A program made the position numbers and the translations under genes. Positions 18,710 through 49,967 of a DNA stretch of 64,000 nucleotides are shown here, one piece after another. Position 1 is the first letter of the stretch. Each line of letters opens with the position of its first letter. Source of the stretch: an uncultured Solirubrobacterales bacterium (GTDB lineage: Bacteria > Actinomycetota > Thermoleophilia > Solirubrobacterales > 70-9); NCBI GenBank assembly GCA_963843495.1, contig CAWJJX010000003.1, positions 430,665-494,664 of the forward strand. Direction: 5' to 3'. The notes beneath the pieces are model-generated. The model was not told the DNA's origin. It made no database searches and saw only the letters and a program-made list of their open reading frames with translations.

Positions 18710-21045
18710 CTAAAGCCTGGCGCGAGCACGAAGACGTGCCTCGGTACGCGCCTCCAGGATCGCCCGCAGGTCTACGCCCTCGCGCTCCTTGTCTTCCAGA
18801 ACCACTACAAGCGCATACCGCTGCGGGGCAGTCTCCGGAGACCACCTAGCGGCTAGATGCTGAACCACCACGTGGTAGCCATGCGTGTCGACGGTGTCGA
18901 CTTGCTTTCGAACATGGGAGCGAACCTGGAGCGTGGCGTCCTGGCACTCCTGACTGCCTGGCTCTAGATCCGGACGCCTTCGACCCTTGGTGGGCAGATC
19001 TTTCCTGCCTTTGTCTTTCGGTGGCTGCTCTTTCCAGATCTCCTCTATTTCATCGGCGGACAGACCGCGTACAAGATCCATCTTCATATTCGCCGCCAAA
19101 TACTCACGACGCGTACGCCGAACCGGAGGATCAAATGCAAGCGCAACGGTGATGCGCCGCGTCCCACTGACCTCGACAAACTCTGGAGGAATCGGAACGG
19201 GGTGAATAACCGCCGTGTCGGGATCAATCTCGCCTTCAAATGTCATGGCGACACGGCTACGACCGCTATCGGTCGCCCGCTCATCGGAAAGAAGGCCATA
19301 GCCAGAAGCCCGCCGAAGCTCTTTGGGACCGAGGGCCTCTGGTCCAAGCACGGGCTGAGTGGCCGCACCGATGAGAGCTCGTACGAGGTTGGCACTGATC
19401 CCGGGGTAGCGCGCCAGAATCTGGGCCGCAACCCGCGTTACCCGGGGGCGGCAAAACTCGTGCCATTGGCAATCCCAAAGAGCCGACCATCACGGGCATT
19501 CAGAGAAACGACGCTAACCCCGTGATCACGCTGCTCAAGCATGTTCACGTCGTTTAGGACCCAATTCCCTCCGAAGTGAGTCACATCGGGCTTCACGCCG
19601 CCCGCAGCACCCGGGCCGGAGCGAGTGAATGGCGACGGCTCACTGGCTTTGGCAATTGCACGATCGCCGGGTCGCACCGTGCCATCGGCACGCTGCGGAG
19701 CTTCGTTGCGTGCAAGCGCTCCAACCGTAAGAACGTTGGCTCCAGCGCCGGGCTCTGCTACCCCAGCCGAATCGCCAAAAAGGTAGGTCGGGTAACCGCT
19801 GAGCGCATCCTCCCCATCTCGAAGATCCTCGATTCGGTGATTACCAGCCGCCACAACAATGACTGCGTCTAGCTCCCGAGCAAGTTCGTCCATGCGCTCG
19901 CTCCAGATGCTCAGATGCGGTCCCGAGAACGCAAACCGATCGGCTATCGAGATGTTGAAAACACGAACGCCGTATCGATCATGAAGGGTTCTAATCGCCT
20001 CCTCAATGACCACAAATGCAGGGCGCTTCGTGGGGAAGATCGCATCGCCTGGCTGATCTGGATCAGCCTCGAGCACGCGAACGGAATGCACTGGCCCGAT
20101 GGCCACCCAAGAGCCTTCACCGGCGAGGGCGGCTTCGATATCCCCCAAAACAAGCAATCCAGCTACGAGGGTTCCGTGATCAGTCGGCGGCTGCCAATCA
20201 TGGTCATCGGGGAGCGACATACGCGAAGCAATCGATTCGTCAAGCAGGGGATGCTCCATCACTTCGTCATCGATCAGGCCGATCGGTGCCACCTCTCGGC
20301 GCTCAAGGTCGGGTAGATCCTCCGCCGCCGCTAATCGCCAAGTGGTCGGCTCAAGCCGTGGAACGGGCGACGTGCGGATCAACTCAACTACCGCAAGATT
20401 GAGCAATTCGCCAATGCACTCGTTGCTCGCATGCACGCGAACGACAGTGAACCGAGGGCTTTCATCCGCAGACAGGACCTCTGCCTCGTGACGATCAAGG
20501 ACTTGACGAACCGAGGTAACCCGACTTCGAGCGTCCTGCCCGTTAGCTGACGGCCAGATAATGATGTCGACAGTCAACTCATCTTTTGCAGCTAGCTCCT
20601 CCTCTGAAACACCCGGTCCTTGGCGGTCCTCACGCGAGTAGGGAAGGATCTCGATAATTCCCTCAAAGAAAGTAAGGCCGGGAGCCCCCTTCCGAATCTC
20701 ACCTGCCGCCGTGTAGGCATCAAGTTTCTCCTTGAAGGCACCGGGCCCCTCATCCGCCAGCACGAAATAGGTCCAGCTCTTAGTGTTTCCTAGCCACTCA
20801 AATCCGCTCTCTTGCAGCTTGTCCTCATCGACCCCTCCCGAGTACATGCGGATCTTGAATACGAGAGCAGGATCTACCCCCTCCTGAGTCCTGATAGGCG
20901 GTTGAGCTTCTACAGCTTGGGCCAGGTCCTGCTGAAGCTTGTTCCCGTGCGCACCGGGCTGCTGTTTGTGATCCGAACCTCCCCCTCCAGGAATACGGCG
21001 ACTTTTGATGGGTCGAGGCCGCGGAAGCGGCAAATGATCTGCCAC
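18710..21045 (-). pseudogene. IetS-like S8 (subtilase) serine peptidase, about 778 aa, interrupted by a 1-nt frameshift in a C/G run at 19444-19448
   Basis: Asp (APIGLIDDEV), His (TDHGTLVAG), Asn (VVAAGNH) and Ser (NGTSFAAP) motifs. The frame stops right after GTSFAAPG. The +1 frame continues as RVTRVAAQILARYPGISANLVRALIGAATQP.. into ORF 18710-19351. Adding one C to the C5 run restores ..FAAPRVTRV... Confidence 0.8.
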
Positions 21046-21049
21046 GTGC

Positions 21050-22111
21050 CTACCAGGGCCGAGCTAGCGCATCCTCGATGGCACGCTCAAAGTCGTTTTC
21101 CGAGACGGCTTTGCGGCCAGCAAGAATGGCGTAGCGCATCGCGTCCCACGCCACCTTCTCTGCGGCGGCATGTGGCTTGCCTTTGAGCTTGCTAGCACCA
21201 GCTTCCACATCGACGTGTTGCTTCTTTACCGCACGAAGCCCGCGCCGCAGCAAGAGGCGATTCTGATGCACCGTCGGTCGCCCAAACTCCAAAACCTCAT
21301 CAAATCTCCTCCAAAGAGCCGAATCGAGAAGCTGCTCATGATTCGTAGCGGCAAGGAGAAGGCTTGAGCCTCGAAAAGCGTCAAGCATCTGGAGAAAAGC
21401 CGTGACGACCCGCTTGACCTCGCCATGCTCACCAGGGTCATCACGAGCCTTTCCGAGCGCATCAAACTCATCGAAGAGCAGGACCCAAGATCCGTTCTTT
21501 ACGAAGTCGAAGACACGATGCAGATTGGAGGCGGTCTCTCCCAAATAGCTCGAAACCACCGCATCGATGCGCACAATGACCAGTGGGAGGCCGATTTCAG
21601 TTGCAAGTGCCTCCGCGGCACTGGTCTTGCCGCAACCAGGAGGCCCGTGAAGAAGTATTCGTTGGCGCCGAGGGACGCCTCGACGATCCAGCTCCTCCCA
21701 CCGCCCGTATTCATCCGTCAGAGTTTTCAACCGACCAAGTAGATCGCCATTAAGAACGAGATCATCGAGAGCGCGCTGCGGGTGTCGGACCTCTGCTAGC
21801 GGCCACTCCCCCTCCCGATCTTTGGGTGGAGATGGCAACTCAACATCCGGAGCGACGGCCGTCGTATGTCCGCCGCCGACTAGAAGACCTCGGAGATCAC
21901 GGGCTAGGGCGGTGTGTTGCTTCGCCTCCTCCTCCTCAATGATCTCCTGCGCAGCCCTACGGAAGGCGAGCTCATCGCCCTCTTTGTAGGCACGAAACAT
22001 AGCCTTTAGCTCACGACCCGCCACATGTTCAGCGTAACGCGGTCTGCGGTCAAGAGGCTCGTTGCTGAATCGACTGCAGCGAAGGCCATCTGCGCCTGAA
22101 GGTGCTCTCAT
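21050..22111 (-). CDS. IetA-like AAA+ ATPase
   Basis: Walker A LLHGPPGCGKTS, Walker B VLLFDEFDAL and sensor region LLLAATNH. The stop lies 4 nt before the S8 peptidase start. Confidence 0.8.
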   Translation of the reverse strand: MRAPSGADGLRCSRFSNEPLDRRPRYAEHVAGRELKAMFRAYKEGDELAFRRAAQEIIEEEEAKQHTALARDLRGLLVGGGHTTAVAPDVELPSPPKDREGEWPLAEVRHPQRALDDLVLNGDLLGRLKTLTDEYGRWEELDRRGVPRRQRILLHGPPGCGKTSAAEALATEIGLPLVIVRIDAVVSSYLGETASNLHRVFDFVKNGSWVLLFDEFDALGKARDDPGEHGEVKRVVTAFLQMLDAFRGSSLLLAATNHEQLLDSALWRRFDEVLEFGRPTVHQNRLLLRRGLRAVKKQHVDVEAGASKLKGKPHAAAEKVAWDAMRYAILAGRKAVSENDFERAIEDALARPW

Positions 22112-22161
22112 CGAGCGCCTTCAGCGAGTCTGCGACCACAGCATTCGGTCGCTAATAGAGG

Positions 22162-22207
<46 letters not shown>

Positions 22208-22293
22208 TGAGCCTGGAGATCGGCTGGGCTACGTAGAGCGCGGTCTAGAGCGGTTTCAGCGAGTCGAGCTACGTGTAGATCGGCTGGAATCTG

Positions 22294-22536: not shown

Positions 22537-22920
22537 CTATACCGATGAAGCCGCCACGACCGAGACATTGTCGTGAGCAATCGCCCCGCCCTTCTGTGCA
22601 CGCGCCGTCACCAGCGCCGGCTTGCGGCTTGCAGGCGCTACGTCGAGCACGAACTCGATCCCCAGGCGCCGAACCGCATTGATGATCGTGTCGATCTCCG
22701 GGTTGTGCTCCCCGGACTCGAGCTTGACAACGCGCGGCTGCGAGACACCCAGCTTCTTCGCCAGCGCCCTTTGGCCCAGTTTGTGCTCAGCGCGATATCG
22801 CAGCAGCGTTGCCGCAAACTCCCGCGCAGGAGTAAGTCTCTGCCACTCCGCCCGAAAGCTCGGACCGACAAGCTGCTCCTCGGCCAAGAGTGCATCGAAA
22901 GTTTTGTCGGAAGCTGGCAT
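22537..22920 (-). CDS. XRE-family helix-turn-helix transcriptional regulator / antitoxin-like protein
   Basis: HTH segment LRYRAEHKLGQRALAKKLGVSQPRVVKLESGEHNPEIDTI. Lies 78 bp downstream of hsdM. Confidence 0.75.
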   Translation of the reverse strand: MPASDKTFDALLAEEQLVGPSFRAEWQRLTPAREFAATLLRYRAEHKLGQRALAKKLGVSQPRVVKLESGEHNPEIDTIINAVRRLGIEFVLDVAPASRKPALVTARAQKGGAIAHDNVSVVAASSV

Positions 22921-22998: not shown

Positions 22999-24432
22999 CT
23001 AATTGGAAGTGGCACGGGTCAGGTGCTCCAATGCCTGCTGCAAATCCGCCGCGACCTGGGAGGTCAGTTCATCAATGCGCGCCAACCCCGGGGCCGTCGA
23101 TTCTTCTGCATCAACCTCCCATGAGAGGTCTAGTCGAGCATCATCGGATGCCAACAAATCGGCATGTGAAAACCGGCGCCAGCGCGGTGTCTCAGCTGAG
23201 TCTGTGCGACCGGACTCGCCGTACCGCGCCACGAAGTCAAGAAGATCGTCACGGCGCAGTGGACGCTTCTTCAGCGAAAAGCGATTCCCCGAACGTAGGT
23301 CGTAGACCCAAAGTGACCCCTCAGCTACGGGGTTACGATCGAAGAAAAGAACATTCGCGCTGACGCCGGTTGCATAGAACAAGCCCGCTGGCAATCGGAG
23401 CAGCGTGTGCACGTCGCACCCTCCAAGGAGTCGCCGTCGAATCGCCGCCGCGGCCCCGCTCTCGTAGAGAACATTGTCAGGCAGAACGACCGCCGCCCGC
23501 CCGCCCCCCTTTAGGCAAGCGACGATGTGCTGGAGGAAATTGAGCTGCTTATTTGCCGTCTCAACCCAGAAGTCGGAGCGAACGACTCTAAGTTCGTCTG
23601 CCGTGCCGGATCCGTTGGCAGTGGCGTATTTCACGCTTCCTTTGATGCCGAATGGAGGATTCGTCAGCACCAGGTCGACTGTTTCGATCGGCGGAACCGA
23701 CAAGCTGTCGGCACAGGCAATTGGCAACTCGGCATCGTTATCGCCGGAGACCCCATGGAGGAACAGGTTCATCGCCGCGAGACGAGCCACCTCCTGTACG
23801 AGCTCTACGCCGCGAATGGCCCTCGTCCGAAGGTGCTTGCGCTTCGCGGTCGACAGCCTTGGGTTATGGCGGACGATGTGCTGGTGGGCGGCAAGTAGGA
23901 AACCGCCAGTCCCACAGGCTGGGTCGAGGATCACCTCTCCGGGCGCCGGAGCTAGGCACTCGACGAGGGCGTCGGTGAGCGGCCGGGGCGTGAAGTACTG
24001 GCCCGCGCCGCTCTTCGTGTCACGAGCATTCTTCTCAAGCAGCCCCTCGTAAGCGTCTCCCTTGACATCGTCGGAGAGCTCGGCCCACGTCGTCTGGCCA
24101 ATTAGATCCGCTACGAGCAGACGAAGCTTTGCGGGGTCCGCGATCTTGTTCCGGGCGTCACCGAAGATGAGACCTAGCGTTCCCCCTTCGCGACCAAGAC
24201 CCGCGAGCACTTCCCCATACGCCTGATGCATTGCCTCCGCGTCAAGCGATGCAAAGGATCTCCAGGAGAGACGCACGGGAACGACTCCATCGCCCCGCTC
24301 GTCGGCCATCTTGAGGAAAAGAAGATAAGTGAGCTGCTCGACATAATCCGGATAGGAGAGTCCGTCATCGCGCAAGACATTGCAGTACTGCCATAGCCTG
24401 CGAACCAGCTCCTGCGCACCAGGAGCACTCAT
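22999..24432 (-). CDS. hsdM: type I restriction-modification N6-adenine DNA methyltransferase subunit HsdM
   Basis: HsdM N-terminal region (LWQYCNVLRDDG..YVEQLTYLLFLKM), SAM motif ILDPACGTGGFLL and catalytic LTNPPFG. ATG 24432 overlaps the stop of the upstream HNH gene (ATGA). Confidence 0.9.
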   Translation of the reverse strand: MSAPGAQELVRRLWQYCNVLRDDGLSYPDYVEQLTYLLFLKMADERGDGVVPVRLSWRSFASLDAEAMHQAYGEVLAGLGREGGTLGLIFGDARNKIADPAKLRLLVADLIGQTTWAELSDDVKGDAYEGLLEKNARDTKSGAGQYFTPRPLTDALVECLAPAPGEVILDPACGTGGFLLAAHQHIVRHNPRLSTAKRKHLRTRAIRGVELVQEVARLAAMNLFLHGVSGDNDAELPIACADSLSVPPIETVDLVLTNPPFGIKGSVKYATANGSGTADELRVVRSDFWVETANKQLNFLQHIVACLKGGGRAAVVLPDNVLYESGAAAAIRRRLLGGCDVHTLLRLPAGLFYATGVSANVLFFDRNPVAEGSLWVYDLRSGNRFSLKKRPLRRDDLLDFVARYGESGRTDSAETPRWRRFSHADLLASDDARLDLSWEVDAEESTAPGLARIDELTSQVAADLQQALEHLTRATSN

Positions 24433-25289
24433 GCGATGGGGGGAATATTGGGAAGCACTGCACGCTCGATCCACTTACGATCTCTAAAACGCCGGATGTA
24501 AGCGATTGCCGCGCGCGAGTACTCTCGCTTTTCGCCGGTCATTCGGATCAGATCCCTGATCACGGCCTTAAGCGTCTCGGTGGCGCTCGCCTCGCCTCGC
24601 AGTCGGCCAGCCTCGGCGCGGTCACCAACGGCAACGCGCCGCAGGACCTCTGCATACATGTCTCGCCGGTCCTCCACAAATGCCGGCCAGTCAAGATGGA
24701 GCAGCTCCCGGCTCGCCTCGACCCTCCGAACCACCGTTTCGGATTCCCTGTGAGCAGGGGCCACGGCCACCCGGCCGTCGATATCAAAAGTCAGGAGCGG
24801 TGGGTCCTCGGGGTCAATCGGGTCAAGCAGCTCAGGCTCCTCATGGCACAGTTCTTTCGGAGAGCACCATCGCCGATCCTCATCGAGTAGCGGGAAATGG
24901 TCGCCCTTCCCAAGCACCGTGTCTTCGTCCGGGTTACGGCGCCGCCTATTTGCCCGATGGCAACTGAGGCGCAAGTTGCGCCAGTCGAATGCCAGCCACC
25001 AATAGCCGTCATGCTCTGGGCACTCCGCAACCTTGCCCTTCGGCCGGTAGTGGTCGACGTCATCGTCGGAGCCTGGATTTCGGGACTCCGTGTACCAGCA
25101 CTTACGGCCGTAAGTCCCCTCAAAGACCGAGCGAAACTCGGCATACGCTTTTCGCTTCGCCTTAATGAGTTGGCGCCGTTTCTCATCGTCCAACTCGGAC
25201 AGCATCGCCTGCCGCATCACTTCCGCGGCGTCGATCAGCTTTTGCGCCTCGACGTCGCCGAGGAGCAAGTCCAAGTCGATGTACCTCAC
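24429..25289 (-). CDS. HNH-family nuclease-like protein (Septu PtuB / TIGR02646-like)
   Basis: DVDHYRPKG .. WRNLRLSCHRANRRRRN HNH core. The N-terminal Cys pair is degenerate (KCWYTES). ATGA overlaps at both ends. Confidence 0.7.
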   Translation of the reverse strand: MRYIDLDLLLGDVEAQKLIDAAEVMRQAMLSELDDEKRRQLIKAKRKAYAEFRSVFEGTYGRKCWYTESRNPGSDDDVDHYRPKGKVAECPEHDGYWWLAFDWRNLRLSCHRANRRRRNPDEDTVLGKGDHFPLLDEDRRWCSPKELCHEEPELLDPIDPEDPPLLTFDIDGRVAVAPAHRESETVVRRVEASRELLHLDWPAFVEDRRDMYAEVLRRVAVGDRAEAGRLRGEASATETLKAVIRDLIRMTGEKREYSRAAIAYIRRFRDRKWIERAVLPNIPPIA

Positions 25290-26929
25290 GGAGTCAGCGG
25301 ATGGTCGGCGAGTTCCTGAGCAATTTCCTCGGCCACCTCATCCGCGAGCTCCTCGCGACGCCGAGATTCCTCAACGCTTACTTGGCCGGCCACGGTCGTA
25401 GGTTCGCCTCCCGCCGTGGTAAAGCGGGGCATGAACTGGTCCAGGAACAGCTGGTAGAGCGGGTCGCGATCCTGCTTCCAAAATGAGTGTGCGTTCAGCT
25501 GGTCGCCCAGCTCCCGCAGCTCCCGCTCCTCTGCTTTCGTCAGCGTATCCTTCATCGCAAGCTCCCGCTGCCGCTCCACTTCCTGCAACGTCTTCCGATC
25601 GAGACCACCTGACGGCAGGCGAAAGAGATCGCTCGCGAGGATAGCTTGGATCCCCATGCCTTGGGGATCGTTCAGGGGCCCGTCCACTTCAGCCGTACCG
25701 TTTTCGGCGCGCCTAAAGATCCTCACCTGAGGACGCGTGAGCCGGGCGAAGACGAGTGGGTCGTGAGTGGCCATCACGATGTGAGAACTCTTGGGGTCGA
25801 CAATAAAGCGATCAAGGAAATCCAGATAACGCGTACTCCAGCCAGGATTGAGGTGCGTGTCCGGCTCGTCGAGCAGGAACAAAGCCTCGGCACGAGCCGT
25901 GAACTTGAGTAGGCCTAGCACCAACAGAAGTTGCTGCTCTCCCTCCGAGAGATCGTGATAAGTGACCTCTCCACCGCCAGCCGCTGGCGTCATACGCACG
26001 CGAGTACGAACCTCTCCAAGCAGCTTCGAAAGATGGGTGCTCTCAAGCGCCGTAAAGAACGCGTACGGATCGTCGTAATGCTGGTAAACACTCTCAAGCG
26101 CGGCAGCGCTAGGAAGAAACAAGTAGACACTCTCGATGGAGGGGTTCTGTGGGCCCACTGCGATTCTCCGTGGCATACGCGACGGCAGCAGCGCAGCTTC
26201 GTAGACATGGTCTAGGAAGACCTGAACCTCGCCGACGGCATTCCAAAAACGAGGGTCACCTCCTTTTCTCTTTCTGCCACCCCAATCTGGTTTCTTTAGG
26301 GCAAAGAGAACACTGTCAAGACCTTCAATTTGAAGTTGCTCGCGCAAGAATGCTCGACCGCCGCCGTCGTCGCTCTCAGGCTCCATGAAGAAGGCGAGTA
26401 GCGCGAATTGCCCGTGCAGGGTTTCCGCATAGAAAAGACGACGGAGAATGTTCGGGTCAATCGCGCTTTGCCGCTGGTTTCGAGCTTTGATGATGAAGTC
26501 GTAGAAGCGTTCGCGATGGGGCTGATAGAGCGCAGCGAGTCGATCGGTGGGGCCGGAGTAGTAGCCGAATACAAACGCAGGCCGGTAGAGGGGGCCCCGC
26601 TCGTCCTGCTGCTCGAACTCCTTACGGGACAGCCGACGGTAGCTCTTCTCGCCTGGCGCTTGCGCCAGCACCACCGGCCACGACTCAGAGGCAGCCTCGA
26701 TCTTGACCTTGTAATCGCGACAGTGGTAGTGCAGGCGGTAGTCGAAGGGCGCAGGTCGACCAAGGTCGAGCTGGCGGAAGATCAGCGTGAGTGCCTCCAA
26801 GAGGTTCGACTTACCGGCGCCGTTCTCCCCGACCAAGACCGTGTATGGGGACTCTTCATCGAAGACGATCTGAAGATCCTGAAGATTCTTGAAGTTGCGT
26901 ATATAGACCTCGTTAAGGCGCATCGGCAA
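25286..26929 (-). CDS. ABC/SMC-like AAA ATPase (Septu PtuA-like, restriction-system-associated)
   Basis: Walker A VGENGAGKSN, signature-like LSEGEQQ, Walker B ALFLLDEPDTHL and H-loop MATHDP. The start overlaps the hsdS 3' end. Confidence 0.8.
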   Translation of the reverse strand: MPMRLNEVYIRNFKNLQDLQIVFDEESPYTVLVGENGAGKSNLLEALTLIFRQLDLGRPAPFDYRLHYHCRDYKVKIEAASESWPVVLAQAPGEKSYRRLSRKEFEQQDERGPLYRPAFVFGYYSGPTDRLAALYQPHRERFYDFIIKARNQRQSAIDPNILRRLFYAETLHGQFALLAFFMEPESDDGGGRAFLREQLQIEGLDSVLFALKKPDWGGRKRKGGDPRFWNAVGEVQVFLDHVYEAALLPSRMPRRIAVGPQNPSIESVYLFLPSAAALESVYQHYDDPYAFFTALESTHLSKLLGEVRTRVRMTPAAGGGEVTYHDLSEGEQQLLLVLGLLKFTARAEALFLLDEPDTHLNPGWSTRYLDFLDRFIVDPKSSHIVMATHDPLVFARLTRPQVRIFRRAENGTAEVDGPLNDPQGMGIQAILASDLFRLPSGGLDRKTLQEVERQRELAMKDTLTKAEERELRELGDQLNAHSFWKQDRDPLYQLFLDQFMPRFTTAGGEPTTVAGQVSVEESRRREELADEVAEEIAQELADHPLTP

Positions 26930-28553
26930 CCGCCCTCAGCGTCTGGTTCTCGGCGGGATCCCCAGTCGCTTCGACCGACGTGCCGATCTCCTCACGAAGA
27001 GCGAGATAGAAGCGCTCGATCTCCCCGATCTCATTCAGATCAAATCCGGCCGCCCTGCAGAGTTCCGGAATCGTCATCGGTCCTGAACTCCTCAACGTCG
27101 CGGCAAGCCGCAGCTCGTCCGTATCAGGTCCAGCAGCCTGTCTCTTGGCCACGCCTCTCCTTTCCACAGCCTCCTCACTGATCTCGATCTTGTCCGATGG
27201 CGGCTTACCGCTGCGGACGAGCAGACTGTCAGCAGGCTCGTCGCTCGCCTCCTGCGGAACAAGGCCGCCCGACACCGCCCCGGAGAGGATCTCTTTTTCA
27301 ACCGCGTTGATCCGCTCGAGCGAAAGGGCAATCGTCTCCCGACGCTCGCGAGACTGATCCAGAAGCTGTCTCGCCCTACGGACTATCGAGCGCTGCTCAT
27401 CGATAGGTGGCAAGGGAAACGGCATCGCGGCGAAACGGGTGCGAGACAAATGCGCGATGTTCGTCGACCCGCGTGCAAAGCGCCTGAACTCACCGCTATG
27501 CAGGTAATGTCGAAAGACGATGAGCGCAAACTCTGGCTCCACGTCCGAACTGGCTCGGAAGCGCAGCAGAGTGTTCTGGAAGCAGGCACCCGGTGGCTCT
27601 CCTCGATAGACGGCCGGCCGGCCGACAAGCTCGAGACTCTGGCCCTCGTTCAGCAGGACATCTCCGTCTTCAAGGACATACCTCTCGAACTCCTCCGGCG
27701 TGAAGTTCATCTCCTTGACATCGCCCAGATCGATCCGATCCTCGAAAACGTTCGCCACGCGCAGGTAGGGATGCATGTTGGGCCCACTGTGACTCGCAGG
27801 CGCCCGCTGCTTTCCCAGGCGGATTTCCGCAACTTCATCGACACGTTGCAGCTTCCACCCAGCGGGGACAGGATTAACTCGGGCATTGCTAGTCCGTTCC
27901 AGCCCTGATCCGCGCGCAGAAGACGCTTTATCTAGCAGTCCACCAGTAGCGGCCGCCAGTACCTCCGACTCTTGCTCATTGGTTCGTGCGAGTGCCCTCT
28001 CCAGCGAAGCGGCGGCAGCATGTAGCTCAGTGATACGCCGACTCGCCTCAACGACTATCCGATTTTGCTCTGCGAGCGGCGGCAAAGGGAAGGGAAGTCG
28101 TGCGAAACGCGTCGCCCCAAGGTGCTGGATTCCAATGCCCCGCGCCGCACCCGCGAATACACCCGATGCCATGTAGTGCCGGAAGACGAGAAAGGCATAC
28201 TCCGGAACCACAACATGCGGCCGAAAGCGAATAACGGTGTTCTGGAAGCAACAAAGCGGCATCTCGTTGCGCCAGATCGCCGGCCTCCCCACTTGGTCTT
28301 CGCTGCCTGAGGCCTCGGTCAACACGACGTCGCCATCCGCAAGCGCGTACACCGACCGCTCCGCAGGCGTGAAGTCCATTTCCTGGATGTCCTCCAGATC
28401 GATGCCGACTGACGTGATGTTGGCTGCCCGCACATACGGCGTCGGGAACGGCCCCGTCTGTCGTCGAGGCGAGCGTTGACGTCCGACCCGCACGCGCCCG
28501 ACCTGGGCAACCGTCGTTTCGACCCAGCTTGCCGGAAGATCAGAGCTACCCAT
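26913..28553 (-). CDS. hsdS: type I restriction-modification specificity subunit HsdS with about 100-aa C-terminal extension
   Basis: Two target-recognition domains, each followed by a conserved helix (FPLPPLAEQNRIV.. and FPLPPIDEQRSIV..). The usual end GGLVPQEASDEPADSLL is followed by an extra 99 residues. Confidence 0.85.
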   Translation of the reverse strand: MGSSDLPASWVETTVAQVGRVRVGRQRSPRRQTGPFPTPYVRAANITSVGIDLEDIQEMDFTPAERSVYALADGDVVLTEASGSEDQVGRPAIWRNEMPLCCFQNTVIRFRPHVVVPEYAFLVFRHYMASGVFAGAARGIGIQHLGATRFARLPFPLPPLAEQNRIVVEASRRITELHAAAASLERALARTNEQESEVLAAATGGLLDKASSARGSGLERTSNARVNPVPAGWKLQRVDEVAEIRLGKQRAPASHSGPNMHPYLRVANVFEDRIDLGDVKEMNFTPEEFERYVLEDGDVLLNEGQSLELVGRPAVYRGEPPGACFQNTLLRFRASSDVEPEFALIVFRHYLHSGEFRRFARGSTNIAHLSRTRFAAMPFPLPPIDEQRSIVRRARQLLDQSRERRETIALSLERINAVEKEILSGAVSGGLVPQEASDEPADSLLVRSGKPPSDKIEISEEAVERRGVAKRQAAGPDTDELRLAATLRSSGPMTIPELCRAAGFDLNEIGEIERFYLALREEIGTSVEATGDPAENQTLRAVADAP

Positions 28554-28815: not shown

Positions 28816-28841
28816 AAAAACCCCGCATTTGCGGGGTTTTT
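28816..28841 (-). terminator. intrinsic (bidirectional) terminator hairpin immediately downstream of tRNA-fMet
   Basis: AAAAA-CCCCGCA-tt-TGCGGGG-TTTTT: a perfect 7-bp GC stem flanked by A5/T5 tracts. Confidence 0.8.
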
Positions 28842-28847
28842 GTGAAA

Positions 28848-28921
<74 letters not shown>

Positions 28922-44656: not shown

Positions 44657-47600
44657 CTACGTCGCGACCGGGGCACCCGTCGCCTTCGCATCGCGGATCG
44701 CCTCCGCCATCGCCAGCACCGCAACGAGGCGTGCTTCGGGCTCGTCCTCGACGCGCACGCTCGCGGTCCTCTCACGCCACTCGTAGAGGGCGCCCTCTAG
44801 CCGCTCACCGAGCGCGCTGGCGCCCTCCGAGTCGAGCTCGACCCCGGTGACGCTGAGGCGCCCGCCGCGGAACTCGACGCTGCGGGCGCCCGCCAACCCC
44901 AGCTCGATCCGAGCCCGCTGCAGCGCCAGCAGGTTCTCGGCCTCGGGCGGGGGCGGCCCGAAGCGGTCGTCGAGCTCGTCGCGGATCGCGCGCAGCTCGC
45001 CGGGCTCGCGGGCCGCAGCGATGCGACGGTGGACGTCGATCTTCGCCGCCTCGAAGGGAATGAAGGCAGCGGGAAGGTAGGCGTCGACCGGCACGTCGAG
45101 CCGCACGGGCTCGGGCGCCTCCTCGCCCTCCTCGCCCTCGCCGGCCTCCCGTGCGAGGCCAACCGCCTCGTCGATCATCTGGCAGTAGAGCTCGAAGCCA
45201 ACGGCGGCGACGTGGCCGGACTGCTCCTCTCCGAGGAGGTCGCCGGCGCCGCGGATGTCGAGGTCGCGCATCGCGATCTTGAACCCCGAGCCGAGCTCGG
45301 TGTGGTCGGCGAGGGTCGAGAGGCGGGCCGCCGCCTCCTCGGTAAGAGCCTCGGCCGAGGGGTAGAGCAGGTAGGCAAAGGCGCGCTCGCGTGAGCGCCC
45401 GACCCGGCCGCGGATCTGGTACGCCTGCGCCAGGCCGAGCTGGTCGGCGCGCTCGACTATCAGCGTGTTCGCGGTCGGTATGTCGAGCCCCGACTCGATG
45501 ATCGTGGTCGTCACCAGGCAATCGGCCTCTCCGCGCAGGAAGCCGAGCATCGTCCCCTCGAGCTGGGTCTCCTCCATCTGGCCGTGTGCTTCGGCGAAAC
45601 GCGCCTTGGGCACCAGGCCGCGCAGACGCTCAACGGTCTCGGGCAGCGAGTCGATCCGGTTGTGCAGGAAGAAGGCCTGGCCGCCGCGCTCCAGCTCGCG
45701 ATGGATCGCCTTGGCCACCAGGTCCTCGTCGTAGGGGCCGACGTAGGTCCGGACCGGGCGGCGTCCCTCAGGCGGGGTCTCGATCGTCGAGATGTCCCGC
45801 AACCCAGCCAGGCTCATCTGCAGGGTACGCGGGATCGGAGTCGCCGAGAGGGCCAGCACGTCGACCTTGAGCTTCAGCTGGCGCAACAGCTCCTTCTGCT
45901 TGACGCCGAAGCGCTGCTCCTCGTCGACGATGACGAGGCCGAGGTCCTTGGCCCGCACGTCGCGCGAGAGCAGGCGGTGGGTCCCGATCAGGACGTCGAC
46001 CTTGCCCGCCTCGAACTCGGCCAGCGCCGCCTTCACCTCCGCCGGCTTGCGCAGACGAGAGACGCCCTCGACGACGAAGGGCAGGTCGGCGAGCCGCTCG
46101 CGGAAGGTGCCGAGGTGCTGCTGGGCGAGGACCGTCGTCGGCACCAGCATCATCACCTGCTTGCCGTCGGAGGCAGCCTTGACCGCCGCCCGCAGCGCCA
46201 CCTCGGTCTTGCCGAAGCCGACGTCGCCACAGACGAGCCGGTCCATCGGCTGCTCGGCCTCCATGTCGCCCTTGACCGCCTCGATCGCTTCCACCTGATC
46301 GGCGGTCTCGCGGTAGGCGAAGGCGGCCTCCATCGTCATCTGCCACTCGCCGTCGGCGCCGAAGGCGTGCCCCTTGCGCGTGCGCCGCTCGGCGTAGAGG
46401 TTGAGCAGCTCACCGGCGAGCGCGCCCGCGGCGCGGCGCGCCCGAGCCTTCATGTTCTGCCAGCGCTTGCCGCCGAGCGCGGAGAGCGTTGGTTCGCCGC
46501 CGGCGCCGACGTACCGGCTCAGCTTGGCGAGCTGATCGGTGGGGACGTAGACGCGGTCCTCGCCCTTGTATTCGAGGTAGAGGTAGTCGCGGGTGACGCC
46601 GCCGACCTCGCGCGTCTCGAAGCCGGCGAAGCGGGCGACGCCGTGGTCCTCGTGGACGACGTAATCGCCGACGCGCAGGTCGCTGAAGGCGAGCCTGCCG
46701 CGGGCGGCGCCCGGGGCGCGGGCTTCGGCGCGGCGGCGCCGGTGGACGAGGCGGCGGAAGGGGTAGACGGCGAGCCGCAGCTCGGGGCTGACGAAGCCCT
46801 CGCGCAGCCGCGCCTCGGCGAAGGTGAGGCCGGGGTCGGGCGAGAGGCGGCCGCCGTCGAGCAGGGCCGCGTCGAGCCGGTCGAGACCGTAGCGCGCTCG
46901 CTCCGCCTCGCCGCGGTCGTCGAAGGCGACGATCGTGCGGTAGCCCGAGCGGACCTGCTTCTCCAGCTCCGCCTCGGCCTCCTTGACGCTGCGGGCGGGA
47001 GACTCGGCACGGGCGGCGCGGAAGGCGTCCTCGTCGCCGTCTCCCGCCGCCTTGAAGGAGAGGACAGCGCGCTCCGCGAGCGGCACCGCGACGTCGACGT
47101 AGAGCCTGCTGGCGTCATCGGAGTGCATCGCGGTCGTCGCGTCCTCCCAGTGGTCGCGCAGGGCGGGCTCGATCTCCTCGGCGGCGGCGAGGATCACCGT
47201 GGCCGCGTCGGGAACCAGCGTCAGCGGCGGCCCGAAACGCTCCAGCGGCAGCACCTCGGCCAGGCTGGGCGCCTCCCTGCCCTCCTCTGCCGCCTCCATC
47301 GCCACCAGCTCGGCGAGTTCGCGGTGCTCGGCGTCGAGCTCGGCCGCCGGCGCCAGCTCGACCCGCTCGGCGTCGCCCAGCGAGCGCTGGGTAAAGGTCG
47401 AGAACCAGCGCATCGACTCGACCTCATCGCCGAAGAGCTCGATCCGCACCGCCCGCTCCTCGGTCGCGCCGAAGACATCGAGGATGCCGCCGCGAGCGGC
47501 AAACTGGCCGCGCTCCTCGACCTGCTCGACCCGTTCGTAGCCGGCCGCGGCGAGGTCGCGGGCGACGCCCGCCGGGTCGATTTCCTCGCCCGCGAGGATC

Positions 47601-48043
47601 GTCAGGCCGGAGGGACGCAGGGCGGCGTCGGGCACCGCCTCGGCGAGCGCCGTGGCGCTGGCGACGACGAGCGCGTCCGTCTCCTCGGCAAGCGCGTCGA
47701 GCGCGTCGATCCGCAGTCCCACCAGGTGGGGCGGCGGCGTCACGTGCGAGGCGAAGCCGGTCCCGCGCGACGGGTAGAGGCGCACGCGTCGCGGTGCCAG
47801 GTAGGCGCGCAGATCGGCGGCGAGGTCACGGGCGGAGCGATCGTCGGCGGCGACCAAGAGCGCCGGCCTGCCGGCCAGCCCCCTGTCGTCCTCGAGCAGA
47901 GAGGCGAGCAGCAGCGGACGCAGCATCGCGGAGGCCGCCACCCCGACCGCCTCGTCACCGCCCGCGGCGTCGCGCACGCGGCCGGCGAGCGCGTGCACGC
48001 GCTCGTTCTCGGCGGCAATCTCGATCAGCGGTCTGAGTGACAT
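44657..48043 (-). CDS. mfd: transcription-repair coupling factor Mfd
   Basis: About 1128 aa with a UvrB-homology N-terminus, an RNAP-interacting domain (VGDYVVHEDHGVARF), SF2 helicase motifs (GDVGFGKTEV, VIVDEEQRFG) and a TRG motif. Start placed at MSLRPLIEI (ATG 48043). Confidence 0.95.
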   Translation of the reverse strand: MSLRPLIEIAAENERVHALAGRVRDAAGGDEAVGVAASAMLRPLLLASLLEDDRGLAGRPALLVAADDRSARDLAADLRAYLAPRRVRLYPSRGTGFASHVTPPPHLVGLRIDALDALAEETDALVVASATALAEAVPDAALRPSGLTILAGEEIDPAGVARDLAAAGYERVEQVEERGQFAARGGILDVFGATEERAVRIELFGDEVESMRWFSTFTQRSLGDAERVELAPAAELDAEHRELAELVAMEAAEEGREAPSLAEVLPLERFGPPLTLVPDAATVILAAAEEIEPALRDHWEDATTAMHSDDASRLYVDVAVPLAERAVLSFKAAGDGDEDAFRAARAESPARSVKEAEAELEKQVRSGYRTIVAFDDRGEAERARYGLDRLDAALLDGGRLSPDPGLTFAEARLREGFVSPELRLAVYPFRRLVHRRRRAEARAPGAARGRLAFSDLRVGDYVVHEDHGVARFAGFETREVGGVTRDYLYLEYKGEDRVYVPTDQLAKLSRYVGAGGEPTLSALGGKRWQNMKARARRAAGALAGELLNLYAERRTRKGHAFGADGEWQMTMEAAFAYRETADQVEAIEAVKGDMEAEQPMDRLVCGDVGFGKTEVALRAAVKAASDGKQVMMLVPTTVLAQQHLGTFRERLADLPFVVEGVSRLRKPAEVKAALAEFEAGKVDVLIGTHRLLSRDVRAKDLGLVIVDEEQRFGVKQKELLRQLKLKVDVLALSATPIPRTLQMSLAGLRDISTIETPPEGRRPVRTYVGPYDEDLVAKAIHRELERGGQAFFLHNRIDSLPETVERLRGLVPKARFAEAHGQMEETQLEGTMLGFLRGEADCLVTTTIIESGLDIPTANTLIVERADQLGLAQAYQIRGRVGRSRERAFAYLLYPSAEALTEEAAARLSTLADHTELGSGFKIAMRDLDIRGAGDLLGEEQSGHVAAVGFELYCQMIDEAVGLAREAGEGEEGEEAPEPVRLDVPVDAYLPAAFIPFEAAKIDVHRRIAAAREPGELRAIRDELDDRFGPPPPEAENLLALQRARIELGLAGARSVEFRGGRLSVTGVELDSEGASALGERLEGALYEWRERTASVRVEDEPEARLVAVLAMAEAIRDAKATGAPVAT

Positions 48044-48134
48044 GGCAGGCGAAACGCCCGGAGCGGGGCTCCGGGCGGGTCGGGCGATTCTACGAGGCGA
48101 GGCCGGGCGGCCCTCCAGACCTAGTATCTGCACC

Positions 48135-49967
48135 ATGTCCGCGCTGGGAGACGTGGCGGCGGCGATCCTGCCGCCGGAGGCAGGGGGGCCCGACCCCGAG
48201 CGCGTGGCGGGCGTAGCCCGGCGGATGGTCTCGCGGATGCCACCCGCGTCTCAGGCTGGGATCGGCGCAGCGCTGATCGGCCTGGAGGCGTTCTCGCTGG
48301 CGCGCACCGGCCGGCGACTTGGGAGGGCGGCGCCGGAGCGCCGGGAAGAGCTGCTGGCCGAGGTCACCCGCCTAGGCGGTGCGCCGCTGCTGGACACGGT
48401 CAAGTCGATAATCATGCTGGCCCACGGTGCCGACGCCTACGCCGGCGAGATCGCCGCGGTCGGCTCGCGCCACGAGCCGTCGCGACCCGACGGCGCGCTC
48501 AACCTCATCCCGGCGACCGAGTGGGCTCTGCACGCCAGCTGCGACGTGATCGTGATCGGGTCCGGCGCCGGCGGCGCCTTCGCCGCCCGGGCGCTGGCCC
48601 GGGCCGGCCTCGACACCGTGATCGTCGAGGAAGGCGAACGCTGGACTGCGGAGCGAATCCGCGACTCCCATCCGCTCGATCGCTTCGCCGGCATCTACCG
48701 CGACGGCGGCACGACGACGGCGCTCGGCAACCCGCCGATCGCCCTGCCGCTGGGACGCGCCGTGGGCGGCACGACGGTGATCAACTCGGGCACCTGCTAC
48801 CGGCCCCCGACCGCCGTTGCCCAGGCCTGGCATGAGCACCACGGCCTGGCCCACGCCAACCTCGAGCTGCTCGGCCCGCGGGTCGCCGACGTCGAAGCGA
48901 CGATCGGCGTGGCGCCGGCGCCGATGGAGGTGCTGGGCCGCAACGGGGAACTCGCGCTGGAGGGCGCGTCGGCGCTGGATTGGCAGAACGCGCCGCTGCG
49001 GCGCAACGCGCCGGGCTGTCGCGGCGCCTGCCAGTGCGCGATCGGCTGCCCCAACAACGCCAAGGGCGGCGTCCACCTCAACGCCCTGCCGCAGGCCTGC
49101 GAGGCCGGCGCGCGGATCGCCTCGGGCCTGCACGTGCGCCGGGTGCTGACCGAAGCGGGGCGGGCGACCGGCGTGCTCGCCCGCGCAACGGACGGCCGGG
49201 AGGTGCGCATCGCGGCGCCGCTGGTCGTCGTCGCCGCCGGGGCGGTGCCGACGCCCCCCCTGCTGCGGCGCAGCGGCCTCGGTCGCCATCCCGCCCTCGG
49301 CCGCAACCTCTCGATCCACCCGGCAACCGGCATCACCGCGAGCTTTGAGGAGGAGGTGATCCCATGGCGCGGCGTGATGCAGAGCGTCGGGATCGAGGAG
49401 CTGCACGAGCGCGAGGGGGTCCTGCTCGAGGCCACCTCGACGCCGCCCGGGATGGGGGCGGTCTCAGCGCCCGGCTACGGCACGCACCTGCTGCGGCGCC
49501 TCGACCGCGCCGCCAACACGGCGACGCTGGGAGCGATGATCGCCGACGAGCCATCCGGTCGCGTCTTCGGCCGTCGCTCGCCCCTGGTCACCTACCGACT
49601 CGCCAAGGCCGACGAACGCCGTCTCGCCATCGCCGTCGCCGCGATGACGCGCGTGATGCTCGCCGCCGGCGCAAGGGAGGTCGAGCTGGGGGGCGGCGCC
49701 CCCGTGGTCCGCTCCGAGGCGGACCTGGACGCGGCGATGCAGCAACTCGACGTGCGCCGCCTGCGACTCGCCGCCTTCCACCCCACCGGCTCCGCCGCCG
49801 CCGGGTCGGACCCATCGCGCCACCCGGTCGATCCGGAGGGCCGTTTGCGCGGCATCGACGGGGTCTGGGTCGCCGACGGCTCGATCCTGCCCAGCTGTCC
49901 GGGCGTGAACCCCCAAGTCTCGATCATGGCGATCGCCGCGGGGGTCGGCGAGGCGGCAACCGCGTAG
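48135..49967 (+). CDS. GMC-family FAD-dependent oxidoreductase
   Basis: DVIVIGSGAGGAFAARALARAGLDTVIVEEG Rossmann motif and a C-terminal GMC_oxred_C-like region (..HPTGSAA..VADGSILPS..). Confidence 0.85.
   Translation: MSALGDVAAAILPPEAGGPDPERVAGVARRMVSRMPPASQAGIGAALIGLEAFSLARTGRRLGRAAPERREELLAEVTRLGGAPLLDTVKSIIMLAHGADAYAGEIAAVGSRHEPSRPDGALNLIPATEWALHASCDVIVIGSGAGGAFAARALARAGLDTVIVEEGERWTAERIRDSHPLDRFAGIYRDGGTTTALGNPPIALPLGRAVGGTTVINSGTCYRPPTAVAQAWHEHHGLAHANLELLGPRVADVEATIGVAPAPMEVLGRNGELALEGASALDWQNAPLRRNAPGCRGACQCAIGCPNNAKGGVHLNALPQACEAGARIASGLHVRRVLTEAGRATGVLARATDGREVRIAAPLVVVAAGAVPTPPLLRRSGLGRHPALGRNLSIHPATGITASFEEEVIPWRGVMQSVGIEELHEREGVLLEATSTPPGMGAVSAPGYGTHLLRRLDRAANTATLGAMIADEPSGRVFGRRSPLVTYRLAKADERRLAIAVAAMTRVMLAAGAREVELGGGAPVVRSEADLDAAMQQLDVRRLRLAAFHPTGSAAAGSDPSRHPVDPEGRLRGIDGVWVADGSILPSCPGVNPQVSIMAIAAGVGEAATA

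Follow-up and report, generated by a model that had tools for sequence, protein, structure and literature searches.

A Septu-like PtuAB pair joined to type I methyltransferase and specificity genes in a conserved four-gene cassette, mostly without HsdR

Introduction

Septu consists of an ATPase, PtuA, and an HNH nuclease, PtuB, and in its stand-alone form it is reported to be regulated by the ATP level and sensitized by a phage tail fibre (PMC12819146). The characterized PtuAB systems nick DNA or cleave tRNA-Tyr (PMC11555353, PMC12819146, PMC13096335). Retrons have co-opted PtuAB by adding a controlling sensor, and their PtuA forms a context-specific clade (PMC12819146). Septu has also been described embedded in the methylase-containing Hma system, and defence genes have been described embedded in type I restriction-modification (R-M), BREX and DISARM loci (PMC8565338; bioRxiv 10.1101/2024.01.29.577857; PMC11232893). 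Here we analyse a stretch of 64,000 nucleotides from an uncultured Solirubrobacterales bacterium (contig CAWJJX010000003.1 of assembly GCA_963843495.1; hereafter the window), in which positions 22999-28553 are occupied by four overlapping minus-strand genes, hsdS, ptuA, ptuB and hsdM. An original prediction, made from the letters of the window, had described these genes as an ATPase/HNH pair nested in a type I specificity and methylase module that has no HsdR, and our Pfam, PADLOC and tblastn searches support that description.

OLD-ABC ATPases coupled to HNH have been reported in RM-like systems and in BREX contexts (PMC12839542), and a preprint of September 2026 lists RM, BREX, MADS and DISARM, together with its own MANTIS, as the methylation-based defences. 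Our full-text literature searches, which did not cover Krishnan et al. 2020, returned no paper describing or testing the combination of HsdM, HsdS, PtuA and PtuB, in agreement with the statement in the original prediction that no mechanistic description was known. PADLOC annotates the pair as Septu, and the link to the methyltransferase and specificity genes is absent from the system definitions that we found. Both embedded Septu and RM-like systems built on ABC ATPases have already been described, and the four-gene unit is an uncharacterized variant rather than a categorically new system. The best explanation of the evidence presented below is that the cassette is a self-contained, mobile, methylation-based defence unit with four obligate components. 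The reading of its function that we favour, at about an even chance, is that self DNA is marked by the complex of HsdM and HsdS (M·S), which also licenses PtuAB to act as effector instead of HsdR.

Results

The first gene of the unit, hsdS (26913-28553, minus strand), encodes a 546-aa specificity subunit of the type I family with two paralogous target-recognition domains (TRDs), coiled-coil linkers and an extra C-terminal domain. It is followed on the same strand by ptuA (25286-26923), encoding a 545-aa ABC/OLD-type ATPase of the Septu family, by ptuB (24429-25289), encoding a 286-aa Septu-family HNH nuclease, and by hsdM (22999-24432), encoding a 477-aa N6-adenine DNA methyltransferase of the type I family. 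The four minus-strand open reading frames (ORFs) lie where the original prediction placed them (the hsdM frame spanning 22999-24474 and that of the ATPase 25286-26929), and all of the motifs that it quoted were found in the translations (GENGAGKS, LSEGEQ, LFLLDEPD, ATHDP, DVDHYRPKG, NLRLSCHRANRRRRN, KCWYTES, ILDPACGTGGF and NPPF). Some details of the boundaries needed revision. The ATPase had been started at TTG 26929, but ATG 26923 (MRLNEV..) is the most likely start because the profile match and the homologues begin there and an identical 545-aa product is on record; counted from this ATG, the overlap between hsdS and ptuA is 11 nt rather than 17 nt. The junction of the ATPase stop with the HNH start, given as ATGA, reads GTGA in the sequence, and the ATGA that joins the HNH stop to the hsdM start at 24429-24432 is as originally described. 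The idea of a coupled four-gene unit fared well, since the same cassette recurs with 11- or 14-nt and 4-nt overlaps in about 50 loci, and hsdS, ptuA, ptuB and hsdM are translationally coupled.

The pair in the middle of the cassette is Septu-like, as had been proposed from its motifs. PtuA matches the PADLOC PtuA profile PDLC00293 (1.1e-162) over residues 3-539, corresponding to profile positions 1-523 of 527, and also matches AAA_21, AAA_15 and SMC_N in Pfam; across 15 homologues there is no variation in the Walker A, Walker B, signature and H-loop residues, and PtuA therefore has both the intact ABC-type motifs and the profile match expected of a Septu PtuA. Directly downstream lies an HNH gene of the PtuB/TIGR02646 type, with the caveat that its TIGR02646 score (39.7 bits) is below the curated cut-off of 52.15. 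PtuB gives a full-length match to the PADLOC PtuB profile (5.2e-70) and no Pfam match. When compared with the Protein Data Bank (PDB) by sequence, PtuA shows local matches only, to the PtuA of 8ee4 (E 1e-9), and PtuB shows no meaningful match, its link to PtuB structures coming from a fold search. The AlphaFold2 (AF2) model of PtuB has a predicted local distance difference test score (pLDDT) of 92.6, and its nine best PDB matches in Foldseek are all PtuB chains (probability 0.98-1.0, template modelling score 0.38-0.57, about 17% identity), taken from E. coli Septu and from retron Ec78/Eco7/I-A complexes. Residues D79, H80, N105, N114, C64, W65, Y66 and E68 of PtuB are invariant in all 39 unique family members. 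The degenerate first cysteine pair that had been read in KCWYTES was only partly borne out, in that C64 is invariant and position 69 is Cys in 19 and Ser in 18 of the 39.

The relationship to described families is a distant one. The NCBIfam equivalog of the retron-type PtuA, NF041760, scores 56.7 bits against a cut-off of 500, and the curated NCBIfam cut-offs were likewise missed for the retron PtuB, TIGR02646, TIGR04435 ('restriction system-associated AAA ATPase') and MADS2/3/5. Because these cut-offs are not reached, the PtuAB of this cassette is, judged by profile scores, a distinct and distant Septu-like subfamily. PADLOC already has hidden Markov models built on this subfamily, and Vibrio homologues score 1.5e-207 and 5.8e-100. 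In the INPHARED phage collection, we found no match to the PtuA of the window.

The flanking genes are equally well defined. HsdM matches N6_Mtase (1.8e-65) and HsdM_N in Pfam and MTase_I in PADLOC (2.2e-161), and carries both the S-adenosylmethionine motif and the NPPF expected of a type I N6-adenine methyltransferase. The NPPF is invariant in 35 of 35 unique sequences; in motif I (DPACGT[A/G]GF) the D, P, A, both G and F are found in all 35, and the C and T in 34. As the methylase, HNH and ATPase motifs are invariant or nearly so, HsdM, PtuA and PtuB are enzymes under selection. HsdS, whose homologues are 530-590 aa long, matches Methylase_S in Pfam in two stretches (1.7e-13) and Specificity_I in PADLOC (9e-97). 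Its two TRDs, TRD1 (28074-28493, minus strand, about aa 21-160) and TRD2 (27354-27833, minus strand, about aa 241-400), are recognized by Pfam, by PADLOC and by their alignment with each other at about 45% identity, by which they are paralogous.

HsdS also has an additional C-terminal domain (26916-27107, minus strand, about aa 483-546), the 3' end of which overlaps the start of ptuA. In the AF2 model this domain has three helices followed by a beta-hairpin (pLDDT 88-91) and is tethered by a disordered linker of about 40 aa (pLDDT <50). Its Foldseek matches are winged helices of the MarR, ArsR and Z-alpha types with weak E-values (0.02-0.05), and we tentatively assign it a winged-helix fold. 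Canonical HsdS is not known to have an extra tethered winged-helix domain. The domain is conserved in the family alignment, and a profile of it matches the HsdS C-termini of distant R-less loci as well as those of the HsdR-containing loci L074 and L076; thus, it tracks the partnership with PtuAB and not the loss of HsdR. From the model, the extension is a candidate structural adaptor. In a separate group of loci (L026-L028), the HsdS match (query residues 5-369) lies about 1.4 kb from ptuA (for example L026:8630-10001), a distance about 0.8 kb greater than the remaining HsdS requires, and a divergent or inserted segment in the C-terminal half of HsdS is possible there.

To ask how far the association extends, we assembled a sample of loci from metagenome, viral and plasmid collections, plus per-protein look-ups; a scan of genome contigs with one of the proteins contributed 3 loci. 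Close homologues of PtuA number in the thousands, with about 60% identity across phyla, and PtuB is represented by 352 cluster representatives (50% identity clusters) at E<=1e-30. About 50 independent loci have all four genes together; they come from Actinomycetota, from Alpha-, Beta- and Gammaproteobacteria, from plasmids and from viral contigs, and the order is S-A-B-M (hsdS, ptuA, ptuB, hsdM) or permuted to M-S-A-B. In the gene tables of Conexibacter, Bradyrhizobium, P. aeruginosa, Sediminicoccus, Paractinoplanes, a soil contig and Ralstonia, the order is S-A-B-M, the overlaps are the same and the flanks are unrelated; a distant PtuB representative gave S-A-B-M again. In a tblastn search with the four window proteins, all four genes were contiguous and co-oriented in 41 of 70 loci, or 41 of the first 65 related ones; in the remainder, the missing genes coincide with contig ends, with the single exception of a decayed copy (L003). 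Plasmid copies include those of Roseomonas, Pantoea (PtuA 38% identical) and a conjugative plasmid of Vibrio vulnificus (L015), where the order is M-S-A-B. Of eight IMG/VR loci in which PtuA is 34-40% identical, every one has the full set of genes, in the order S-A-B-M in five of them and M-S-A-B in the other three (L077-79). The permutation in L015 and L077-79 indicates that the association survives rearrangement, and conservation of the unit in relatives, which the original prediction had made a condition of its own survival, is therefore found even where the order has changed. The cassette moves as a unit between phyla, plasmids and prophage-like elements.

These data bear directly on the view that the operon holds two independent systems, an orphan M·S methyltransferase with an epigenetic or anti-restriction role and an embedded stand-alone Septu, which would gain from each other nothing beyond co-transfer or co-regulation. 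Orphan methyltransferases are widespread (PMC12707154), and the embedding of Septu and other defence genes in methylase systems is common, with a genomic sink, linked transfer or co-regulation having been proposed as the cause (Payne et al. preprint; PMC11232893). However, Septu type I is defined as a stand-alone two-gene system (Doron 2018; PADLOC), and here hsdS and hsdM flank the pair in every sufficiently long related locus; in no case where the contig was sufficient for a check, with identities as low as 34% and both gene orders included, was this PtuAB subfamily found without HsdM and HsdS. Pairwise identities of HsdM correlate with those of PtuA at r=0.95 (PtuB 0.84; TRD1 0.87), and such tight co-variation means that the partners have not been shuffled. 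The reading-frame overlaps are conserved as well, that of hsdS with ptuA being 11 nt in 31 and 14 nt in 13 of 45 loci, and HsdS has the family-specific extra domain described above. Finally, in one locus (L081:1-2499; JGI 3300064040 Ga0604922_0044044), a single uninterrupted ORF joins the C-terminal half of HsdS, including its winged-helix region, to a complete PtuA by way of a 21-aa linker, and PtuB and then HsdM follow. This fusion, from a single metagenomic contig, may be a Rosetta-stone sign of physical association between HsdS and PtuA. We consider it improbable that the two halves of the operon are independent.

As the original prediction had stated, there is no hsdR in the 64 kb: Pfam searches of the long ORFs returned only Mfd, and when five bona fide HsdR proteins of related loci were used as tblastn queries, the best E was 0.26. 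The Mfd (44657-48136) is indeed a genuine TRCF, with UvrB_inter, CarD_TRCF_RID, DEAD, Helicase_C and TRCF domains. The SF2 helicase-nuclease that would complete a type I system is thus missing from the window, nor does it adjoin the cassette anywhere in the window's clade, and tblastn found no HsdR remnants in the window or in any R-less locus. We extended the search to the flanks of related loci (16 with at least 5 kb on both sides and 35 with at least 5 kb on at least one; 466 kb in total), using Pfam on flanking ORFs of at least 600 aa and precomputed gene tables. One bona fide HsdR was found (L022:18683-21238), on the opposite strand and beside its own HsdM, which is 29% identical to the HsdM of the window. 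It belongs to a canonical type IB-like system (L022:16429-21238) that is convergent to the R-less S-A-B-M cassette at a distance of about 2.5 kb, and it is 54% identical to the HsdR adjoining the M-S-A-B cassette of L079. The L022 HsdR is part of a separate canonical type I system, and apart from this case no co-occurring hsdR, which the original prediction had named as grounds for abandoning its proposal, was found within 10 kb of a cassette.

An HsdR supplied in trans from elsewhere in the genome would make the locus an ordinary type I system, with the nested Septu as an add-on. Three things fit this view: the absence of hsdR has been established for 64 kb of this genome only, a canonical type IB R-M system does lie near the cassette of L022, and the R proteins of the HsdR-containing relatives belong to the same type IB-like family. 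However, a nearby HsdR occurs in just 1 of the 35 loci with at least 5 kb of flank, and that one comes with an HsdM of its own. In addition, the cassette travels R-less on a conjugative plasmid (the whole gene list of the 70-kb Vibrio plasmid has M-S-A-B and no R) and on integrative or prophage-like elements, and a compatible R is not assured in each new host. We give little credence to the supply of HsdR in trans.

The distribution of HsdR itself is scattered. In four deep-branching loci on viral contigs, the gene immediately upstream in the operon encodes a type IB-like HsdR (HSDR_N, ResIII, Helicase_C, EcoEI_R_C), the order being R-S-A-B-M (L074, L076) or R-M-S-A-B (L078, L079). In a rough neighbour-joining tree of PtuA, the clade of the window (at least 50% identity) is monophyletic and R-less, and on the deeper branches R-containing and R-less loci are interleaved; the PtuA proteins of L079 (with R) and L077 (without R) are 56% identical, and those of L074 (with R) and the Vibrio plasmid (without R) 47%. 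From the R-less clade, the four R-containing loci and their interleaving on the tree, it follows that the constant core is HsdM, HsdS, PtuA and PtuB and that HsdR is optional and dispensable. We consider that R was lost repeatedly, repeated gain being less likely. Because deep sister lineages keep an adjacent type IB-like HsdR, the R-less cassette is probably descended from a full type I locus in which the pair was embedded.

The HsdR kept in these sister lineages also keeps alive a reading modelled on PrrC. According to this, PtuAB would stay latent while bound to M·S, until M·S is itself bound or inhibited by an anti-restriction factor of a phage (a DNA mimic of the Ocr or ArdA type, or a Stp-like peptide); PtuAB would then be released or activated, and abortive infection by cleavage of DNA or tRNA would follow. 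Where R is missing, the chief role of M·S would be that of bait. The locus of PrrC has the order HsdR-HsdS-PrrC-HsdM, with an ABC-ATPase nuclease in the same slot between S and M (PMC11555353), and PrrC is kept inactive by EcoprrI until Stp inhibits EcoprrI (PMC12707154). The R-S-A-B-M and R-M-S-A-B sister loci, with a complete type IB-like R, have the architecture expected of a guard; a nuclease inside a complete R-M-S locus, as in the case of PrrC, is what we find in L074, L076, L078 and L079, although not in the window, where R is absent. PARIS, an ABC ATPase with a nuclease, is triggered by Ocr (PMC12839542), and some PtuAB systems cleave tRNA-Tyr. Yet the R-less clade has no primary restriction activity to guard and is nevertheless the most widespread in our sample, being found on plasmids, prophage-like elements and islands, and the catalytic motifs of the methyltransferase are invariant in 35 diverged sequences, which would not be required of mere bait.

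The specificity domains offer evidence in both directions. The specificity of classical type I systems is under diversifying selection. In these cassettes, TRD1 has a mean pairwise identity of 0.64, against 0.65 for PtuA, and correlates with PtuA identity at r=0.87; the corresponding values for TRD2 are 0.53 and r=0.73, and the least conserved parts of HsdS are its helical spacers (0.36). Comparison of alignments revealed no type I-style TRD swaps among close cassette pairs. Within the clade the TRDs are therefore conserved and not diversified, as would be expected of bait whose DNA specificity is irrelevant, but between deep lineages they diverge beyond the enzymes (19% identity for TRD1 against 40% for PtuA), which speaks against such a role. 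Taking both sides together, we regard the guard mechanism, the main rival, as unlikely, though as deserving real weight, and continue to favour the licensing of PtuAB by M·S. Among individual sequences, the HsdS of Methylorubrum populi (P0341; alignment A4 columns 300-460) has a TRD1-type domain (..YLRAANIT..LTEASGS..) in place of the second TRD, which is among the few indications that TRDs are exchanged within this family.

From the low GC of the cassette, its adjacency to tRNA-Met and the att-like repeats that bracket it, we conclude that it was acquired horizontally as a discrete unit and belongs to a tRNA-linked defence island. The GC content is 0.58-0.62 over about 19-29 kb of the window and 0.65-0.72 in the flanks. 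A tRNA-Met gene adjoining hsdS (28848-28921, minus strand; ARAGORN; Rfam tRNA, 64 bits) forms the integration site, and a partial copy of its 3' part at 22141-22210 is a direct repeat of 28825-28894 (70 nt, 83% identity; repeat search). The tRNA-Met and the att-like repeat bracket a 6.7-kb element that contains an XRE-HTH gene together with hsdM, ptuB, ptuA and hsdS, and has no integrase inside it. The XRE-type helix-turn-helix (HTH) gene (22537-22920, minus strand; Pfam HTH_3, 9e-10) lies 78 nt downstream of hsdM, and is a possible controller of the cassette. A scan for sigma-70 promoters and terminators over 18.5-29.2 kb gave sites no more numerous than in shuffled sequence, and is uninformative for transcription in a high-GC organism.

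In other lineages, the small DNA-binding genes directly upstream of hsdS differ, often with a 4-nt overlap: Phd/YefM-like genes in P. aeruginosa and Ralstonia (L008:8039-8275 and L080:9768-10004), MarR genes in Sediminicoccus and Roseomonas (L010:7856-8269 and L013:9766-10248) and a ribbon-helix-helix (RHH) gene in a soil contig (L012:8059-8280). These may be lineage-specific controllers. By analogy, the Phd/YefM, MarR, RHH and XRE genes resemble R-M-like controllers or repressors, which is weak evidence in keeping with a potentially self-toxic system.

A second defence system lies beyond the inner repeat, just outside the cassette. IetA is encoded at 21050-22111 (PADLOC 5.8e-87); for IetS, the profile match is divided between an ORF at 19438-21045 (positions 27-536 of 795) and a 213-aa ORF at 18710-19351, in another frame (positions 589-788), and this split is likely to be a frameshift, a pseudogene or a sequencing error. 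The position of IetAS outside the repeat-bracketed element suggests that two islands accreted in tandem at the tRNA-Met. In several other loci, S8 subtilase ORFs of about 850 aa, similar in size to IetS, are found near the cassette (L026:3840-6395, L028:3166-5721 and L055:16452-18998), and this could be recurrent co-occurrence or mere clustering in defence islands. In L037 (4217-11472), the strand opposite to the cassette encodes, just downstream of it, an SNF2-like helicase and a methylase-specificity fusion of the Eco57I/TaqI_C type, which look like another RM-like system in the same island.

Discussion

The original prediction left two readings of this locus, the replacement of HsdR by the ATPase/HNH pair and the gating of the pair by the methylation and recognition complex, and both are still live. 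In the mechanism that we envisage, an M2S1 complex would methylate its target sequence on host DNA and read the methylation state of DNA that it meets. The paralogy of the two TRDs would predict a symmetric, bipartite m6A target. PtuA and PtuB would be physically attached to this complex, probably through the C-terminal domain of HsdS and PtuA, and engagement of unmodified target DNA by M·S would license them to cut. PtuAB would then be a restriction effector that dispenses with translocation of the HsdR type, acting on DNA or, as in some PtuAB systems, on tRNA. Because the characterized PtuAB systems differ (DNA nicking in some, tRNA-Tyr cleavage in others), the substrate in this case is not predictable. 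Stated in full, the proposal is one of R-independent, 'type I-like' restriction, with the M2S1 sensor directly licensing a tethered PtuAB to destroy unmodified invader DNA or to shut down translation, and in this complete form we put it slightly short of an even chance. The co-option of PtuAB by retrons is a precedent for such an arrangement. If the R-independent reading is correct, methylation gating is a third mode of PtuAB control, beside ATP-level sensing and retron msDNA, and the repeated loss of HsdR while HsdM, HsdS and PtuAB persist is explained.

Several observations weigh against the licensing of PtuAB by M·S. PtuAB cannot be taken simply as 'the' nuclease in those sister lineages whose operon includes HsdR. 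The TRDs of the window's clade are as conserved as the enzymes and not hypervariable, unlike those of classical type I systems. Stand-alone Septu is reported to respond to the ATP level or to phage proteins and not to DNA methylation (PMC12819146), and the slot between hsdS and hsdM is the place of a guard nuclease, PrrC (PMC11555353). Finally, the fusion of HsdS with PtuA is known from one metagenomic contig, and the search that found no hsdR in this genome covered the 64 kb of the window.

This analysis has consequences for annotation as well as for mechanism. Automated tools would report a plain Septu and, beside it, an incomplete type I system, and so miss one conserved unit. If M·S does control PtuAB, the cassette would offer a simple four-gene model for how a Septu effector is switched on and for how methylation-based discrimination of self from non-self may be linked to non-HsdR effectors. 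Cassettes with and without R, scattered as they are, lend themselves to natural comparison, and a concrete interface is suggested by the HsdS-PtuA fusion together with the tethered winged-helix domain. In transformation and phage work on the many soil and clinical taxa that carry it, among them P. aeruginosa, Ralstonia, Bradyrhizobium and Vibrio vulnificus plasmids, the cassette would act as an unrecognized barrier or methylation signature.

Compared with known systems, the flanking genes are those of a classical type I system, with motifs I and IV in HsdM and with two TRDs and helical spacers in HsdS, and the closest family is the type IB or EcoEI-like one, judged from the HsdR of the sister loci. 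The cassette differs from classical type I systems in having no HsdR, in TRDs that are not hypervariable within the clade and in the extra winged-helix domain of HsdS. With PrrC of the type IC locus EcoprrI, it shares an ABC ATPase-regulated nuclease between hsdS and hsdM, R-S-PrrC-M (PMC11555353) being matched by R-S-A-B-M in L074 and L076, and the functional dependence of PrrC on R-M proteins may be a further likeness. However, PrrC is a single protein with a C-terminal anticodon-nuclease domain, whereas there are two proteins with an HNH nuclease here, and HsdR is absent from the window and from most of its relatives.

The Hma systems with Septu, described as 'guilt-by-embedding' (Payne et al. 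2021, 2024), also have a co-oriented Septu pair between genes of a methylase system, but the host system here is type I M/S and not HmaABC (helicase, m5C/DUF1156 methylase and ATPase). Furthermore, the association is obligate for the PtuAB subfamily of the window, whereas Hma also occurs without Septu. An assignment to Hma with embedded Septu was rejected, as the flanking genes score as Specificity_I and MTase_I and there is no helicase within the repeat-bracketed element. MADS resembles the cassette in combining a methylation self-mark with an ATPase and a non-HsdR nuclease, and its methyltransferase, S-like and AAA_15 components give weak matches here. We rejected MADS on the scores of MADS2 (119 against 720 bits), MADS3 (45 against 420) and MADS5 (43 against 400), and on the presence of four genes rather than eight.

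The effector pair itself compares most closely with Septu of E. coli and Bacillus (PDB 8EE4/8EEA), in which an ABC/OLD-type ATPase is likewise followed by an HNH nuclease in overlapping genes, and PADLOC matches to it are full length. It differs in that the pair of the window is only about 17% identical to the solved PtuB and matches the solved PtuA only locally by sequence, and in that this subfamily always occurs with HsdM and HsdS and never stands alone. Type I-A retrons (Ec78/Eco7, Ec83) are similar in placing a PtuAB effector under an added sensor, again with a context-specific PtuA clade (PMC12819146). The locus is not itself a type I-A retron: no reverse transcriptase or non-coding RNA was found, Rfam at the gathering threshold detecting only tRNA over 18-30 kb; the neighbouring ORFs are hsdS, hsdM, HTH and IetAS; and the score of NF041760 rules out an orthologue of retron Ec78. 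In this case, the added module is a type I methyltransferase with its specificity subunit. If the licensing of PtuAB by M·S is correct, the type I methyltransferase would join stand-alone Septu and the type I-A retrons as the third sensor module recruited to a Septu effector.

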